Shown: positions 1 through 8,418 of the stretch, one piece after another
Layout of the letters: every line of letters begins with the position of its first letter
How positions within the stretch are numbered: position 1 is the first letter of the stretch
Source of the DNA: Escherichia coli
Lineage (GTDB): Bacteria > Pseudomonadota > Gammaproteobacteria > Enterobacterales > Enterobacteriaceae
Length of the DNA stretch: 64,000 bases
Strand: one strand, 5' to 3'
Assembly (NCBI RefSeq): GCF_041248615.1
Contig: NZ_CP158426.1
Program-made: the position numbers and the translations under genes
Notes under the pieces: model-generated
Databases searched by the model: none
Told to the model about the DNA's origin: nothing
What the model saw: only the letters and a program-made list of their open reading frames with translations

Positions 1-780
1 ACCAGCACCTACATCCCGCACCCGCTGCTCAGCCAGCAGGCTTTTTCACGTTTTGTGCAGGACTATCTGGTATTTGGTAACGCCTACCTGGAGAAACGCA
101 CGAACCGCTTCGGTGAAATTATCGCCCTTGAACCGGCCCTGGCAAAATACACCCGACGCGGGTTAGACCTGGATAACTACTGGTTTGTGCAATACGGCAT
201 GACCACGCAGCCGTATCAGTTCACGAAAGGCAGTATCTTTCATCTGATGGAACCGGACATCAACCAGGAGATCTACGGCCTGCCCGGTTATCTTTCTGCC
301 ATTCCATCCGCCCTGCTCAACGAGTCCGCCACGCTGTTCCGTCGAAAGTATTACATTAACGGCAGTCATGCAGGCTTCATCATGTACATGACCGATGCCG
401 CGCAGAACCAGGAGGATGTGAACAACCTCCGCAATGCGATGAAAAGCGCCAAAGGCCCTGGCAACTTCCGCAACCTGTTTATGTACTCGCCTAACGGCAA
501 AAAGGACGGGCTTCAGATCATCCCGTTGTCAGAAGTCGCGGCGAAGGATGAGTTTCTGAATATCAAGAACGTGAGCCGGGATGACATGATGGCTGCGCAT
601 CGTGTGCCGCCACAAATGATGGGGATAATGCCAAATAATGTCGGGGGATTTGGGGATGTGGAGAAGGCTGCTAATGTGTTTGTTCGAAACGAGTTGCTAC
701 CTTTACAAAAAAGGATAGAGGAGGTCAATGATTGGCTAGGTGAAGATTTAATTACATTCAATTCATATTGCTTTGATTAA
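1..780 (+). CDS. Phage portal protein (P2 Q / 186 W-like), C-terminal part; 5' end lies left of the window
   Basis: Frame 1 is open from base 1 to the stop at 778-780 (track ORF 55-780 starts at an internal GTG). Gene points toward the cos-like sequence at 2045-2063, as the portal gene does in P2-family genomes. Product call is from position and recalled family resemblance. Confidence 0.5.
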   Translation, partial: TSTYIPHPLLSQQAFSRFVQDYLVFGNAYLEKRTNRFGEIIALEPALAKYTRRGLDLDNYWFVQYGMTTQPYQFTKGSIFHLMEPDINQEIYGLPGYLSAIPSALLNESATLFRRKYYINGSHAGFIMYMTDAAQNQEDVNNLRNAMKSAKGPGNFRNLFMYSPNGKKDGLQIIPLSEVAAKDEFLNIKNVSRDDMMAAHRVPPQMMGIMPNNVGGFGDVEKAANVFVRNELLPLQKRIEEVNDWLGEDLITFNSYCFD

Positions 781-832: not shown

Positions 833-1984
833 TTATTCAACTTCATCGTAATAAATCTCCCATTGATCATTCATACCAACAACCTGCTTTTCCTCGTAAA
901 TATACTGAACCTTGTCAATTTCTATTACTTTTGATGAACCATCTATAAATTCCATACATGAAGGATTAAAAACAACCAAGTTCTTACCTTTACCAACTGT
1001 ACTTGAAAATTGTATACCATCATACCCCTCTTTCCTTATACAATCAGATATTAGTTGGGACACACTATATCTTCCTTCTAAGGAAGGTGGAGTTGCAGTA
1101 TTAAAAATACCTGCCATCTTTGCATATGGTATCATGGATAATAAACTTTCATCACTCTCAATAAACTCTAAAAAATTAGGATAAGAAAAATCGAATACCT
1201 TTAATGCTTTTGCAACTCTAAATTTACCAATTGAAACAACATCTGTTGGATGAGGTCGAACTTCCGCAATTGCAGTATAACTATCTGTAGCACAATAAAG
1301 GTAAGAAACGCCTGCTCTATTAGCCCTGCCAGCAGTAGCCTTTAGTGGTGGCACGGCTCCTATTTCCTTATCTTTAAATGGAACAAATATTTTCTTTCCT
1401 TCACGGCTAAATCCCCTAAGTGCTGTTTTATAGCCAGCAGTCCCAACTCTGGCTCTATATACCACAGAACTTCCTTCTATTATCTTCGAAAAAATATCAC
1501 CATAACCTTTTATAATACTTCTTAGCTCACCTTCAAAATCATGGTAATTCTTTTCTGAAAGCTGTTTTGACAAAGAATCTAAAAATGGCTGATGTGCATT
1601 TCTGATAGACATATATGGCGTATTATATAGACCATCAGATCCATAGCCTGCATAAATATTTATTCCCTCACTATCAAATGCCATATCCCACAATTCGCTA
1701 TCGAGTTCCCCAAAAGATTCATCATGCTCCTGTATATCCTTGGTGAAAATAAAATCATCTTCCAATAGAAAACTCGGGTAATACTCCCCTCCAAAATGAG
1801 TATTGTAATCGACTTCATCATAATGATATCTCAGAATAGCTTTCAACAAATTACGTACTTCTGAAGAATCAGTATCTAAACAAACAGTATCTGCACAACA
1901 AAAAGCACAAATACCTCGTATATTTTGCGAAAAAATTAGTTTTTTTATATTTGATTCAACAATGTGACTTTCGCAGATATACAT
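833..1984 (-). CDS. RES-domain protein with Cys/His-rich N-terminal domain (putative NAD+-targeting toxin / abortive-infection effector); AT-rich cargo gene
   Basis: C-terminal half carries the RES signature: VYRAR, AGRANRAGVSYLYCATDSYTAIAEVRPH (R..N..G...LY.A.......E) and DGIQFSSTVGKGKNLVVFNP (conserved Ser, N.vvF). N-terminus has C-x20-C-x2-CC-x4-C. AGGAG sits 6 nt upstream of the second ATG (1984). Markedly AT-rich versus flanking phage genes. Confidence 0.6.
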   Translation of the reverse strand: MYICESHIVESNIKKLIFSQNIRGICAFCCADTVCLDTDSSEVRNLLKAILRYHYDEVDYNTHFGGEYYPSFLLEDDFIFTKDIQEHDESFGELDSELWDMAFDSEGINIYAGYGSDGLYNTPYMSIRNAHQPFLDSLSKQLSEKNYHDFEGELRSIIKGYGDIFSKIIEGSSVVYRARVGTAGYKTALRGFSREGKKIFVPFKDKEIGAVPPLKATAGRANRAGVSYLYCATDSYTAIAEVRPHPTDVVSIGKFRVAKALKVFDFSYPNFLEFIESDESLLSMIPYAKMAGIFNTATPPSLEGRYSVSQLISDCIRKEGYDGIQFSSTVGKGKNLVVFNPSCMEFIDGSSKVIEIDKVQYIYEEKQVVGMNDQWEIYYDEVE

Positions 1985-2044
1985 CATAATCTCCTTGAAT
2001 TTTACCTTACATGCTCATTATTGCCACTTTAGCTTGCGCGCGCA

Positions 2045-2063: not shown

Positions 2064-2349
2064 TGCCCGCTTTATGTAGCGGTTTTCATGCAGGTGCATG
2101 ATCTACGCAAAATCCCACCAGTTCTGGCGGGCCTTAGCAAAAACGATCCGCAAACGATCATGCGATCTCATGCGGCATAGTCATGCACTTACGGGGGAAC
2201 TGAAATCCAGTAACCGAATGATCGCTTGAAAAACGAAACATACGTACTTACAAAGCACAAAGCCTGCTTTGAGCGAAGCGGACATTAATAATGTTGCTGA
2301 CCATCCCTAGTACTTCTCATAATATATCCGTATGTTAATCAACAAAATA

Positions 2350-4242
2350 TTAATTTGTCCCATCACTAAAGAATTTGATTGCGTCAGTTAGTACATAGTC
2401 AATGAAAAATTTTACGTGAAAGACCTGAAAAACGCTATTTTCTGAGTTTTTAATGAAATCTACAGCTATATCTTTTAGGTTGATCAACCAGTTATATTCT
2501 TCAATCAGTCTAGTTCTGGCATCCGCATCAGAATAACGACTCCGTAAGCTAAATGCCAGTTTCCTCATGATAACTGGATCAAGTTTCCTATAGCTTTCAA
2601 TGAAAACATCAGCAGGAACTAAGTGTAAAAAAGGTACATCATGAAGATTTAACTGTCTATTATTAGAATGACTCAATTCAGATAACAACGATAATTTTCC
2701 CCTTTGTAACTCATCTCTGAACTGCAATGCAAATTCCGAAATTGAATCATCAAACCGTTTCTTCCTTTCTATTTTAATATGTTCAATAATGAGCTTAAAG
2801 TCATCACTATCCCTGTCAAGAAAACCTAAACCACGCCATGCCCTTAATTCGTTATAATGTGTTTGCGCATATTCCTTATGTACATCTTCAGCTCTAAGTC
2901 TATTATAATAATTATTTATATTCTGTTTTGTCTCATTTATGAGATCATGAACATCATCTGTTGTTAGACCTTCTTTCGCCATTTCCAGCAAAATACTCGC
3001 TGTCATCAGAAGTTCACCTAAGGAAGTGATCTTACCTGAAAACAGGTTATCCTTAGCAATAGCGTACTGCTCATAAAGCATAGTTTCATTTAGTTCTCTA
3101 TAGTTCCACAAATACTCCCATGCTTGGGAATCGCTGCTTCTAAAAAATCGCGTAATATCCAACTGAGCAAGAAGATCACCCGTTACCTTTCCATCACAGA
3201 TTAGTTCTCTCCAAGACGCACCATCCAGTAACTTCTCGGTTAATACAGGAGACGAATATTTCTCGACAATCATGTCATACTTACTTTTGACACGTTCTTT
3301 ACCCAAAAACATACCATAATTAACATTGCCGATTGAATTGAAATCCTCGTAACTAAGATTCCCTCCCCGGTACTCCATCGAAAAAATTAACAATTGATGA
3401 AAAAACACCCTTATAAATTCATCGTTACTTACATATTTATCTCCCAAAAGGGAAATAATTCGTTGTACATCGAGAAAGAACTGCCTCAAGTGTCTTAGAT
3501 TATTATAATTCGCTGACACATAGAGGTCCTCTATTGTCTGCATATCTTCTTTAAATATATTAGCAACATGCAAACTACTAATTACGTTCAAAAAAATCTT
3601 ACAAGCACTATGTAAATCTGACGTTACTTCAAATGTTTTACCTACTAGCTTTTCTTTTGTTCTCATGTATTCATTGCGAGATTTCTCATCATCATTATTT
3701 ATTCGCTTTTCTCTATTGATTATTTCATCTTCATTGGCAACCAAGATCGCTTTGTATCCGTTTACCTCTACAAAGTGATTTATATATCCAAATAAGATTG
3801 GTAAATCTACACCAGCTCTCTCGACATCATCAAAGACCAGCACAAAACCATCTGGTTTTCTAGTAAAGTCGCTAAGATTAATGGTGGGAACATTGCTATT
3901 GACATCTACGTCAGATTTATTATCGCCATTAAGATCGATCTTGAAAGTAGCCTTAAGCGTATTTTTTAGTACATTTGCACCAAAGATAAGGGCTTTGTTT
4001 GATAGGACAGGATGCAGTTGACGATAGAACTCATCTTCAATCTGCTCAATAGAGTTGACGCCATACAAGCTCACTTTTAGAAATTTGAACTCTGAATGTT
4101 TCTGCCTATATTCTTCAAGAACTCGTTCAATGAACCAAGTTTTACCTGATCCCCAAGCACCTTTAAGCATAATGGCGTATTGAGGTTCAGTTTTAAGGCT
4201 AAGGTAATATTCTAGATAGTCTTTGATGTACGTATTGTGCAT
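2350..4242 (-). CDS. KAP-family P-loop NTPase (candidate anti-phage defence cargo in the tin/old-equivalent hotspot)
   Basis: Walker A GAWGSGKT in the KAP-type GxWGxGK[ST] context and Walker B-like hhhhDDVER (VLVFDDVER); about 630 aa. AT-rich. Start taken at the MHNTY Met (4242); the track ORF extends to 4293 with no RBS. Confidence 0.65.
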   Translation of the reverse strand: MHNTYIKDYLEYYLSLKTEPQYAIMLKGAWGSGKTWFIERVLEEYRQKHSEFKFLKVSLYGVNSIEQIEDEFYRQLHPVLSNKALIFGANVLKNTLKATFKIDLNGDNKSDVDVNSNVPTINLSDFTRKPDGFVLVFDDVERAGVDLPILFGYINHFVEVNGYKAILVANEDEIINREKRINNDDEKSRNEYMRTKEKLVGKTFEVTSDLHSACKIFLNVISSLHVANIFKEDMQTIEDLYVSANYNNLRHLRQFFLDVQRIISLLGDKYVSNDEFIRVFFHQLLIFSMEYRGGNLSYEDFNSIGNVNYGMFLGKERVKSKYDMIVEKYSSPVLTEKLLDGASWRELICDGKVTGDLLAQLDITRFFRSSDSQAWEYLWNYRELNETMLYEQYAIAKDNLFSGKITSLGELLMTASILLEMAKEGLTTDDVHDLINETKQNINNYYNRLRAEDVHKEYAQTHYNELRAWRGLGFLDRDSDDFKLIIEHIKIERKKRFDDSISEFALQFRDELQRGKLSLLSELSHSNNRQLNLHDVPFLHLVPADVFIESYRKLDPVIMRKLAFSLRSRYSDADARTRLIEEYNWLINLKDIAVDFIKNSENSVFQVFHVKFFIDYVLTDAIKFFSDGTN

Positions 4243-4563
4243 TTTTAGTCCATTTTGATAAAATACATAAACATAGATGGTAAGTAGAGCCAAAGGCCAA
4301 CTATGGAAAACTCAATCGGTAGTGTACATTGTAAGGTTATTATTGGTAAATATTATAGGAATACCCATAATCTAACAAAATTCAGATTATCCGTTGCAAA
4401 TTAGTCTGCCATTCGCTAATTGACGAAAGATAGCACAAGAAACGTTCGCTTCTGGCACAAAGCGGACGATCACTTATAAAAATGACCGCCCACCTTACGC
4501 CTTATTTCACTCGTTGCCCAAACTAGCCCCCATTAGAATGAATCCTCCTAGGGGCAACGTTTC

Positions 4564-4797
4564 TTAATGCAGCCAGCTGTCATCTTCCCACACTTTCTGC
4601 ATAATTTTCATTACTTGTTTTCTTTCTTCGTCCAGTTGCAGTCCGGTTAGTTCCACACCGTTAGAGCTACCTTTGCGGATACGAATTACCGTTTTGGAAT
4701 ACAGGGGGCGCAGATTGCGGTAAAGCTCGGATTCAAGGGCGTCCAGGGTAGACTGGCTAATCTTCTGCTCTTTATCGATCATTATTTCAATGCGCAT
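4564..4797 (-). CDS. DinI-family protein (resembles E. coli DinI and the DinI-like domain of phage 186 Tum)
   Basis: MRIEIMIDKEQ...LDALESEL...IRIRKG...LTGLQLDEERKQVMKIMQKVWEDDSW aligns by eye with DinI (MRIEV.IAK...IDAL..EL......V.VR...LSV.G...E...I.EILQETWE.ADDW). GAGGTG RBS 7 nt upstream of ATG at 4797; track ORF 4564-4869 is an upstream extension. Confidence 0.6.
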   Translation of the reverse strand: MRIEIMIDKEQKISQSTLDALESELYRNLRPLYSKTVIRIRKGSSNGVELTGLQLDEERKQVMKIMQKVWEDDSWLH

Positions 4798-4807
4798 AAA
4801 AGTCACC

Positions 4808-4996
4808 TCAGCTGATGACATCCATTGAGCGGTTGTATTCGTGGCTTCTGATTTTTGCCATGAGTTCATCAGTCAATTCAGAAACCCACTGCAGAGCCAG
4901 CCCCTTCTCTTCATCACTACACTCACTAGCCGCTACAAGCTTAAGAAAAAAATCAATGCGCTGGAGCTTCAAAGACTCCAAAAAATAGTCCTGCAT
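4808..4996 (-). CDS. Small phage protein of unknown function, first gene of a two-gene unit with the DinI-like gene
   Basis: 62-codon ORF with AGGAGG RBS 5 nt upstream of ATG; its stop lies 10 nt before the DinI-like start. Confidence 0.45.
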   Translation of the reverse strand: MQDYFLESLKLQRIDFFLKLVAASECSDEEKGLALQWVSELTDELMAKIRSHEYNRSMDVIS

Positions 4997-5149: not shown

Positions 5150-7564
5150 TTAATACAGGTTCCGCCACTGATCATCTTCCTGCAAACGTTGGTTCCGATA
5201 GAAGATACGCAGGCCTGCTCCTGACGGAATACTGCCGCCACGAAGGAGTAAATAGACCTCTTTCTCGCTGCCATCAAATCCTCTGGACTTCAGTTCATAG
5301 ACAAGCTGCTGTCGCTGATGGTCTGTAATTCGCTGTTTGTAGTCTTTACGCCGTTTCGGTTTCACCAGGCGTAACCTTGCAGCCAGTTCCCGGCGCTCTT
5401 TTTTGCTCATACTGTGCAGGTATTCGTGCAACTCCTTGTCATCCATGCGGGTGATATCCGTTCTGGTATCTCCATCAGCTGATTTGTCTTTCCCTTGTTG
5501 GTACAAATTTTCAGCAAGGGGACAGTTATTGCCACGAGTCCAAGGGGCGCAAGCGCCCTGGTCGGCTGCCGCCTCCTGAACGTCAACGGCCTTACGAACC
5601 ATTTTCCACTTCACTGCATGAGTGCAGATCTTGCCCTCTGCAATGGGTGACCAGATGCCATAAATACGAATGCCGTGATCGCCATAGGCGGTCGGCTCTT
5701 CGTTAATTTCATAAGCAGTTCTGATGAGGTGATATTTGCGGGGAACCAGTACGCCGCCCTGCTTCATGATGTAAGTGGCAAAACAACCAGCATCAGCAGC
5801 AGCCAGGATTGCATCAAGGCGCGGGTTATCCAGTACCGGCGCACCTGCTTTTTTGTCCCCCTGTTGCCTTGCCGCCTGACCAGCCAGCAATCGCAGTTCA
5901 CGGTAAGCCTGACGCCCCGGAATGCCAAAGAAGCGGAATTGCTGAACACGATGCAGAGACGCCCAGGCATTAACGTATTCAGCGTTATCACGCAGGGATT
6001 TACCCGTTTCCTTGCTGATCTCGCCAGCCAGACCACGCCCGTCAATGTTCTTACTGATGTATTTCGCGATGTAGCTTGTTGGCGTACCTTTGCGCGGGTT
6101 TATCAGCTCAGACTTAAAGCGTGGTCCCGTGTTATTCCCCAGCTCCTCGCGGTCTTCACGAATGGCAAACTTACGCAATAAAGCAGTAATGGCGCGGCGA
6201 TCTTTTTTGCGCATAAAACACAACAGGTGCCAGTGAACTGTACCGTCATGATGCGGCTCAGCCACCCGCACGCCATACCACCGCAATCCGGCTTTGTGCA
6301 TCGCCTTACGAAATGCAGCAAACATGCCGACCAGATAATCACTGCTTTGTTTTACCGTCGCATTTGTCCAGGTTGGGTTGGGCCTGCCGTTATTTAGCGT
6401 GGAATGGAAACGTGACGGACAGGTGATGGTGTAGAAAACGGCGCAGTCACCGCGCATTTCCGCGATAAGCTCCAGACCTTTAACACAGGCCATCATCTCA
6501 TTGCGGCGATGCGCAGGGTTGCTGCTGCTGGCGTTTACCACATCCTCCATGTCCAGCGTGTCGCCGTCTTCGTTCACCAGTTCATGAGAACGGAAAAACT
6601 CCAGCGACTTACGGCGCTGCTCACGTTTATGCATCACGGCTTCATAGCTGACATAGGGGGATGCTTTTTTGCTAACCAGGCAGACAGCGCGCAACTGCTC
6701 TTCCCGCCATTCGCAACGCATCTTCCATAATTTCCGATACCACCAGTCGGCGCACAACATACGCGCCAGCGAACCCGGAATGAGTTCATAGGGCACGGGT
6801 TTACGGCGGTTTCTTTTCCGGCGGAGTTGCTCAAACGCAGGTGGGATGACATCCAGACGCAGGGTTTCCGCCGCCACCCTTTCCCATGTCTTGCGGATTT
6901 CTTCTGGCTTAACGTCATCGGTGGCATACAAATCGCCACAAGCTGCATCAAGGCACATGCTCATATGCGCAGCAACAAGGGTGGACAGGCGTTTCACCTG
7001 ATCCTGACTCATTTCAGGCAGAATCAGCAGGCCGTCCAGCCCTTCATGGCTTGCCATAAAGCGAAAAGAAGTGGATAGCTGACTGTCGCGTACATGCTCC
7101 AGCCGTTCCAGACATGGCTTAATCGTCTCACGCAAATAGCGGGAATAAGCCTTTGGCCTGCCAAGGCTACTGAAGTATTCAATACGTTGCATCAGCGGCT
7201 TGCTGATATGGGAGGGCTGGGCGCTGACGTCTGCCAGAATGACCATGTCCGGGTTAAAACGCTGCTGCTCATGCGCCAACTTTGCCCGGCTAATGAGCTT
7301 ATCCTGCTCCATTTCGCGCTGGACAGGATCACGGGATTCATTAAAGAAATAACGCTCCCAGACCTGATCACTCAGTGCCTCGCGGCGCAGTTGTTCCTGC
7401 TCGTTATCGGCAGCGTACAGAGTGATCAGGTTTGAAAGCGCAGAAACCGGCGCAACTTCCGCCGGGTCCAGATAAGGGTTAATAGCCTTTTTCGGGCTGT
7501 TCCATGAGAATGCTGCGGCGGCCTCGTTAAAGCCGCTGCAGTTGTTCATATCAGCATGGCTCAT
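5150..7564 (-). CDS. Phage replication initiation endonuclease (P2 gpA / 186 A family, rolling-circle)
   Basis: 804-aa ORF; size, early-operon position and C-terminal region resemble P2-family A proteins. Start overlaps the Dam stop by 4 nt. Confidence 0.8.
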
Positions 7565-8418
7565 GCACGCACTCCGTACACGGCAGAACTATCCACGCCA
7601 CGCGAAGGATCAAATCCCACCCAGCAGCGCGCCCCAGAAACAGCGATGATTTCTGTTGCAGATTTACTCTCACCAGTTGCTACGCCGATGCTGCGTTTTG
7701 CCTTGATGTAGTGGTGAGTAAAATTGCGATACAGCGAACGGATCAGGGATGTGTCACTGTTAGAAACAATGACCGGATGTCCTTCTGATGACCGATGTTC
7801 AAGAACGGATGCCAGGTGATACTGGTCATCTTCAGTGAAGCCGTCAGTGTGATAACCGGAAAACGTGCCGTCATACGGCGGATCGCAATACACCACATCC
7901 CCCGCCTTCAACATCGCCAGCGTTTCATCAAAGCTGGCGCAGATAAACGTTGCCCGCTGGGCTTTTTCTGCAAATGCGCGAATTTCTTTTTCAGGGAAAT
8001 ACGGATTTTTATAATTACCGTAGGGAATGTTGAAATGCCCGCTCTTGTTATAGCGACATAAACCACGGTAACCGTGACGATTGAGATACAGGAAATATAC
8101 CGCTTTCATGAAATCAGTAATTTCAGTTGAGTAATTAAACTCCTGCCTTATGTTGTAATAAGCCACCTCCCTGTTTGCTTCCTCAAATAAAGCTCTGGCG
8201 CGAGATATAAACAATTCACAATCAGCGGCAACCTTTTTATAGAGGTTGATTAAATCAGGATTAATATCCGCAACCAGATAGCTGGGGTAATCCGTCTCCA
8301 TCATCACTGCACAGGAACCCGCGAAAGGTTCAACCAGTCGCGGGCCAGCAGGAAGGTGTTTTTTCAGTTCTGGCATAATGGCGGTTTTATTTCCCGCCCA
8401 TTTCAGGATGGTGCTCAT
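7561..8418 (-). CDS. Dam-family N6-adenine DNA methyltransferase (phage-encoded)
   Basis: N-terminal [11 protein letters not shown]...EPFAGS (SAM-binding) and catalytic DPPY (VYCDPPY); start at the internal Met overlaps the upstream stop (ATGA). Confidence 0.85.

Follow-up and report, generated by a model that had tools for sequence, protein, structure and literature searches.

The DNA analysed here, a 64,000-nucleotide stretch of Escherichia coli (NCBI RefSeq assembly GCF_041248615.1, contig NZ_CP158426.1; hereafter the window), harbours a 186/Fels-2-like prophage that carries a gene for a KAP-family NTPase (2350..4242, minus strand, stop codon included), referred to below as the KAP gene. 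This gene is cargo of the prophage: it is sporadically present among E. coli genomes, is under purifying selection and constitutes a single-gene unit without a conserved partner. Judged by its sequence, the product belongs to PDC-S49, a family that figures in PADLOC only as a candidate for defence. The explanation favoured here is that the gene is a self-contained ‘moron’ of the prophage and that its product probably acts as a stand-alone anti-phage protein of the lysogen. The whole window is identical to record NZ_LT599825.1 of E. coli NRZ14408.

The open frame extends from 2350 to 4293 on the minus strand and, in the list of open reading frames (ORFs), comprises 647 residues if started at a TTG codon. 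The ATG at 4242, which is the start adopted by RefSeq, gives a product of 630 residues (WP_032176113.1) labelled ‘P-loop NTPase fold protein’. The coding sequence is supported by RefSeq, by matches to Pfam, PDC-S49 and PHROG 4740, and by the ratio of non-synonymous to synonymous substitution rates (dN/dS). Pfam KAP_NTPase (PF07693) is matched at 1.3e-19, residues 5-263 aligning with positions 4-290 of the 293 in the model, as the original prediction of a KAP NTPase had anticipated. The suspicion of a defence gene voiced in that prediction also finds a counterpart among defence models: the PADLOC PDC-S49 model PDLC05031 is matched over the full length at 3.7e-156 (residues 2-623 against model positions 5-614 of 624), and the other two PDC-S49 models, PDLC05029 (1.7e-149) and PDLC05030 (3.3e-88), likewise cover nearly the whole protein and the whole model. 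No other PADLOC model matches at E < 0.1. As the PifA, QatA and PDC-S20 models of PADLOC capture other KAP proteins and only PDC-S49 captures this one, the protein represents a distinct KAP subfamily. PHROG 4740, a group of unknown function, also matches over the full length and corresponds to the same family as PDC-S49.

The family is large: 1151 representative clusters are retrieved at E ≤ 1e-30, and a search of 5.8 billion proteins returned 332 matches. Full-length relatives with around 30% identity occur in Pseudomonas, Paraburkholderia, Lysobacter, Psychrobacter, Methylobacter and cyanobacteria. The locus itself has been catalogued before: WP_032176113.1 and its neighbour with a RES domain are found among the rows available from Table S5 of Rousset et al. 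2022 (PMC9122126) as ‘hypothetical + DinI + KAP_NTPase + RES’, and KAP_NTPase occurs at least 69 times in those rows. The original prediction had held that no named system could be assigned from sequence alone; a candidate family now supplies a name and a published table the locus. Both its observation and its interpretation were sound. With the family already named as a PADLOC candidate and the locus listed in a supplementary table of 2022, the finding is not a new one and adds nothing to the map of P2 hotspots.

The protein is a soluble ORC/Cdc6-like AAA+ NTPase joined to a 365-residue all-helical domain without a known fold. The N-terminal NTPase module (residues 1-265; 3448..4242, minus strand) consists of a P-loop core and a helical lid of the ORC/Cdc6-like AAA+ type. 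The Walker A motif GAWGSGKT (residues 28-35; 4138..4161, minus strand) and the Walker B motif VLVFDDVER (residues 134-142; 3817..3843, minus strand) are both present in the 630-residue product, just as originally described for an ORF of about this length. Between them lies a hydrophilic insert of 49 residues (77-125; 3868..4014, minus strand). The remainder, residues 266-630 (2353..3447, minus strand), is the family-specific all-helical C-terminal domain, presumed to be the sensor and/or the effector. This two-module architecture is fixed among the best 150 of 2354 representative matches. Searches of PDB sequences with the whole protein and with a C-terminal profile found nothing, and the protein shows no recognisable nuclease, NADase, protease or pore domain. 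Transmembrane segments are absent as well, the highest 19-residue Kyte-Doolittle mean being 1.3. The transmembrane helices typical of many KAP proteins are thus missing; this trait is absent in PifA too, and is not strictly defining.

Conservation was assessed in an alignment of 76 homologues. Residues G28, W30, G31, G33 and K34 of Walker A are invariant, as are F137, D138, D139, E141 and R142 of Walker B and R250, which sits in the lid motif N-L-R-x-L-R-Q; N170 is nearly invariant. The catalytic residues are all intact in the KAP protein. The C-terminal half has a mean column identity of 0.31-0.50, against 0.54-0.69 for most of the NTPase half, and contains the invariant residues E290, W375, F547, R569 and E582. 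The insert at residues 77-125 is among the most conserved stretches of the family (H77, P78, K83 and D103 are invariant), and its residues 80-122 are modelled by AlphaFold2 with a predicted local distance difference test (pLDDT) score below 50. A role of the insert as an amphipathic membrane-binding helix is unsupported: its hydrophobic moment is only ∼0.35 and its net charge is 0.

The prophage that carries the gene is complete, measures ∼34 kb and lies between ybjL and rcdA. Its early genes are of the 186/Fels-2 type (CI, CII, Fil, Dam and gene A) and its late genes of the P2 type. The hotspot between gene A and the portal gene, which in P2 holds tin and old, has been described previously (Rousset et al. 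2022, PMC9122126; Vassallo et al. 2022, PMC9519451), and cargo from it that was put to the test defends against phages (same two studies). In the present prophage this hotspot consists of two slots with the cohesive-end site, cos, between them. The KAP gene occupies the first slot, between cos and a DinI-like gene that closes the early region of the backbone (4564..4797, minus strand; NCBIfam DinI 1.9e-09, PHROG 189, RefSeq). This is the tin/old position of P2, and the placement proposed in the original prediction, between gene A/DinI and cos, is confirmed. The RES gene lies in the second slot, beside the end of the portal gene.

The borders of the first slot emerge from an alignment with vB_EcoM-813R9, ET665 and K56-43-un. 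Compared with vB_EcoM-813R9 and K56-43-un, the insert spans ∼2190 to ∼4440 and includes ∼200 bp of its own upstream DNA. This upstream region (4243..4440, minus strand) accompanies the cargo: it is kept with the gene in ET665 and is not found in the K56-43-un prophage, which has different cargo. A spacer from the KAP stop codon to the cos block (2190..2349) is missing from the phage with the empty site. The contents of the two slots vary independently, as in vB_EcoM-813R9 the first slot is empty and the second holds a Hypoth_Ymh/HEPN-like gene. No direct or inverted repeats of note that would point to transposition flank the KAP insert.

The sporadic presence of the gene is apparent from a survey of complete E. 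coli genomes. A megablast search that used only the gene as query located it in 45 of 5426 genomes; all 45 copies are chromosomal and all are full length by DNA coverage. The flanking backbone is present in 1283 genomes, as against the 45 with the KAP gene, and the first slot has no cargo in phage vB_EcoM-813R9 and is taken by a PifA-like KAP gene in strain K56-43-un, so that the variability expected of a cargo position is borne out. A tblastn search of 50,697 phage records gave no close homologue; at best, 30% identity was reached over 55% of the protein. The gene had also been described as more AT-rich than the phage genes around it, and its G+C content is indeed 0.351, compared with 0.531 for gene A and 0.497 for the whole window; at third codon positions (GC3) the values are 0.32 for the KAP gene and 0.57 for gene A. 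A 1.9-kb ORF in DNA of 35% G+C is not a product of chance here, given that it has hundreds of full-length homologues and that three E. coli alleles, 8-10% apart at the DNA level, yield a full-length dN/dS of 0.20-0.28. Taken segment by segment, two comparisons reach 0.40-0.51 and none is higher; hence no region exceeds 1. With these ratios the gene is functional and not a remnant.

The genes found next to the KAP gene elsewhere, also among the E. coli prophages, differ from case to case: they are HNH, DprA, SIR2, PIN or hypothetical genes. Seven contexts of homologues in other taxa have no common neighbour and no RES gene. The Serratia homologue is situated at the edge of a lambdoid prophage, adjoining the integrase gene, and the Edwardsiella homologue lies within a lambdoid prophage. 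The Pseudomonas homologue is near a resolvase gene, and those of Psychrobacter and Methylophilus stand solo among housekeeping genes. In four contexts, counting ET665, a defence candidate adjoins the PDC-S49 gene: HNH in three and PDC-S31 in one; the PDC-M04A candidate of the Pseudomonas context is one gene more distant. The adjoining HNH_2-type endonuclease genes, recognised by the PADLOC HNH model, are located at 6794-7693 of locus L008, 9264-10148 of L015 and 2235-2861 of L002. These HNH neighbours, in the unrelated contexts of Serratia, Lysobacter and E. coli ET665, vary in orientation and have only the HNH domain in common (33% identity over 81 residues).

A defence role for the KAP gene is judged likely. 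It is favoured by the PDC-S49 membership, the place in the hotspot and the listing in Table S5, by the sporadic presence, foreign base composition and purifying selection, by the invariant catalytic motifs and fixed two-module architecture, by the absence of a shared partner and the defence candidates beside some PDC-S49 genes, and by the anti-phage action reported for other KAP proteins, Reve and PifA among them. The most likely form of it is a stand-alone phage sensor combined with a nucleoside triphosphate (NTP) switch, a reading drawn from STAND, AAA+ and KAP defence proteins. According to this proposal, the protein would be made in the lysogen from the KAP gene, which together with its own upstream DNA sits between cos and the DinI-like gene. 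A component of the infecting phage would be recognised by the C-terminal domain, possibly also by the conserved insert; the binding and hydrolysis of NTP would then switch the conformation of the protein or cause it to oligomerise; and the active form would stop the infection, with a probable cost to the cell. An outcome of the abortive type, brought about by draining of ATP or damage to the membrane, is a tentative proposition at best. Runaway NTP hydrolysis, PifA-like membrane action and sequestration of a phage protein may each be the output, none of the three being favoured by the odds when taken singly. It is also possible, if rather doubtful, that PDC-S49 proteins are single-protein immune sensors with a novel mechanism that works without membrane anchor, partner or recognisable effector. 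The activity might in that case reside in the new all-helical fold, or in the NTPase together with the 49-residue insert; as a less likely variant, the KAP protein may cooperate with the RES protein across cos.

Several observations weigh against the stand-alone defence explanation. PDC families are candidates by genomic context, so that the support lent by the PDC-S49 assignment is partly circular. A literature search for ‘PDC-S49’ found no experimental test of the family, papers that mention KAP NTPases report none either, and the tested-systems table of Rousset et al. 2022 (PMC9122126) has no KAP entry. The similarity of the KAP protein to Reve and PifA, two KAP proteins compared below, does not reach beyond the NTPase module. 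The defence-island signal is also uneven, as two of the seven contexts in other taxa are among housekeeping genes. Finally, a promoter scan upstream of the gene yielded no coding-strand site that passes the spacing rule. A perfect −10 hexamer, TATAAT, was found manually at 4352-4357 on the minus strand, with a 15-nt spacer to a weak −35, and marks a putative promoter by consensus match only.

The explanation that fares best after the favoured one, and is nonetheless unlikely, casts the gene as a non-defence accessory: a modulator of the prophage's own replication or packaging, an addiction element that stabilises the prophage or a host-fitness factor. The best structural matches are replication initiators, the fold being ORC/Cdc6-like, and the lack of a recognisable effector domain also fits such a role. 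Two homologues stand solo among housekeeping genes, and only three of eight new systems from this hotspot defended when tested by Rousset et al. 2022 (PMC9122126). Against this reading, the ORC/Cdc6-like fold is general to the KAP and STAND clade, including RdrA of RADAR. Moreover, the gene is missing from ∼96% of backbone-bearing prophages and from all phage isolates searched, which indicates that it is unneeded for the phage life cycle, and it also occurs in lambdoid prophages and chromosomal islands.

The second slot, from cos to the portal gene, holds a RES-domain gene (833..1987, minus strand) whose 384-residue product matches Pfam RES at 4.5e-18 over residues 213-347. The N-terminal ∼200 residues have no family match, PADLOC returned no match for the protein, and NCBIfam gave no meaningful match for it or for the KAP protein. 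The G+C content of the gene is 0.344. A RES-Xre toxin-antitoxin pair was considered and rejected: at 384 residues the RES protein is not short, and no small partner ORF or Xre antitoxin gene is annotated. The gene looks like an uncatalogued single-gene candidate for defence that targets nicotinamide adenine dinucleotide (NAD+). Its homologues are cargo at three sites of P2-like prophages: beside the portal gene, beside the integrase gene and after ogr.

The original prediction had left two alternatives side by side, a single-gene system and a module formed with this RES gene; the former is the one favoured here and the latter is poorly supported. A two-gene system across cos, in which the KAP protein would be sensor or regulator and the RES protein an NAD+-degrading effector, is improbable. 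The two genes are adjacent, share a strand and are both AT-rich. Furthermore, wherever the identical RES allele WP_077758113 was found, in four complete genomes and in three of the rows available from Table S5 of Rousset et al. 2022 (PMC9122126), a KAP_NTPase gene is next to it. The KAP proteins concerned belong to at least two unrelated subfamilies, PDC-S49 and PifA-like, and the association may stem from common ancestry or from a functional connection. The RES gene is present in five of the 5426 E. coli genomes: two have this KAP gene, two an unrelated PifA-like KAP gene in the first slot, and the fifth, whose RES homologue is 82% identical, has no KAP gene. These genomes amount to only two or three independent lineages. 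Set against a module is the cos block itself, which places the two genes at opposite ends of the packaged genome. RES is missing from 43 of the 45 genomes with the KAP gene, none of the seven distant homologues has it as a neighbour, and the KAP gene is paired elsewhere with the assorted genes named above. Five RES homologues, with 82, 74, 55, 50 and 45% identity, reside in P2-like prophages without a KAP gene. KAP and RES are best read as independent cargo in adjacent slots.

That the KAP gene is the inactive or decaying leftover of a horizontal transfer is highly implausible: AT-rich foreign DNA is often silenced and no strong promoter is predicted, but the frame of 630 codons is intact, the catalytic residues are kept, all 45 copies are full length, and the dN/dS of the segments is 0.20-0.28 apart from two comparisons at 0.40-0.51.

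Further features of the prophage concern its backbone. The 3′ end of the portal gene (P2 Q-like) lies at 55..780 on the plus strand, and the replication endonuclease gene (P2 A-like) lies at 5150..7564 on the minus strand, both as given by the ORF list and RefSeq. The cos block that splits the two cargo slots (∼2038-2189), defined by alignment and motif search, is near-invariant, with few substitutions among four prophages or phages that differ in their cargo; its cohesive-end core, of the 186 type, occupies 2051-2063 as the reverse complement of GGCGTGGCGGGGA. Two terminator-like hairpins (2114-2131 and 2148-2165, both on the minus strand) lie inside the cos block, downstream of the KAP gene, and a third (4447-4464, minus strand) directly follows the DinI-like gene at the border of backbone and cargo; all three are consensus matches only. 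The mechanical ORF of the DinI-like gene has 101 residues (4564-4869, minus strand), as against 77 in RefSeq (4564-4797); the NCBIfam and PHROG matches start at residue 18-25 of the long form, in agreement with the shorter start. This gene also occurs in prophages without the KAP gene. The prophage ends at ∼12360 of the window, past the integrase gene, and is followed by the E. coli chromosome, which makes up the remainder of the window (12400-64000) and begins with rcdA, ybjJ, ybjI and mdfA. An Rfam scan of the whole window gave 0 matches. In the tail-fibre region of the same prophage, outside the window (locus L012, 17150-20668; record positions 3477149-3480667), pseudogene fragments are annotated beside a small recombinase gene; these may represent an invertible segment instead of true decay.

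PDC-S49 is a large and compact single-gene candidate family without a recognisable effector, and as such a well-defined experimental target. The strong phenotype now known for its distant relative Reve adds to the interest. Should a mechanism of phage arrest by PDC-S49 be demonstrated, it would help to explain soluble KAP NTPases in general, PifA included.

How does the KAP protein compare with known systems? From PDC-S49 it shows no difference in sequence: it matches all three models end to end and is a single-gene unit, in a family that is itself a candidate only. With the cargo of the P2 hotspot, tin and old, it shares the position and the pattern of swapping, whereas Tin and Old are unrelated to it in sequence. 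In the hotspot surveyed by Rousset et al. 2022 (PMC9122126) KAP cargo was catalogued and lay outside the tested set; the hotspot appears here as two slots split by cos.

Among other KAP and related NTPases, RADAR (RdrA/RdrB) and QatABCD can be set aside, as no RdrB, QatBCD or other partner genes are present and no RdrA or QatA model is matched. Tmn is a membrane-bound P-loop NTPase of the related YobI family that acts by way of ATP turnover and Mg2+ export; the KAP protein lacks its transmembrane insertion and matches no Tmn model at E < 0.1. KAP proteins of Gram-positive bacteria have been reported to defend in a Walker B-dependent manner (PMC12632615).

PifA of plasmid F, which excludes phage T7, is a founding member of the KAP family. 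Like the KAP protein, it is a KAP NTPase without transmembrane helices that is encoded on a mobile element. The alignment of the two is restricted to the Walker A region (BLASTP 4e-4 over 58 residues; hhalign 85.6% over 49 columns). Orthology with PifA was rejected: only Walker A aligns, and the PifA model gives no match at E < 0.1, against 2.9e-290 for true PifA. The Pif locus differs in its surroundings too, for no pifC-like repressor gene is found here and the neighbours are the DinI-like gene and cos.

The closest parallel is provided by Reve, a single-gene KAP protein from a P4 satellite hotspot (bioRxiv 10.64898/2026.02.27.708500). Its DNA was taken from Dataset E1 of that preprint and encodes a product of 586 residues, whose sole PADLOC match is PDC-S49 at 2.5e-11. 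Compared with the NTPase module of the PDC-S49 family, Reve gives an hhalign probability of 95.9% over 202 columns. The homology ends after the NTPase module: the C-terminal halves of Reve and the KAP protein do not align, and BLASTP aligns 49 residues only. In other respects the two are much alike, each being a single soluble protein whose N-terminal part is a KAP NTPase and whose C-terminal half is helical, encoded in a hotspot beside cos. Reve is the nearest relative, if a distant one, with an experimental test, and differs from the KAP protein in having plating data: the construct pFD425, equated with Reve from the construct numbering, as the text of the preprint does not state the mapping, reduces the plating of seven Drexlerviridae some 40-fold to 400,000-fold, down to 2.5e-6-0.025, and leaves lambda unaffected (bioRxiv 10.64898/2026.02.27.708500).

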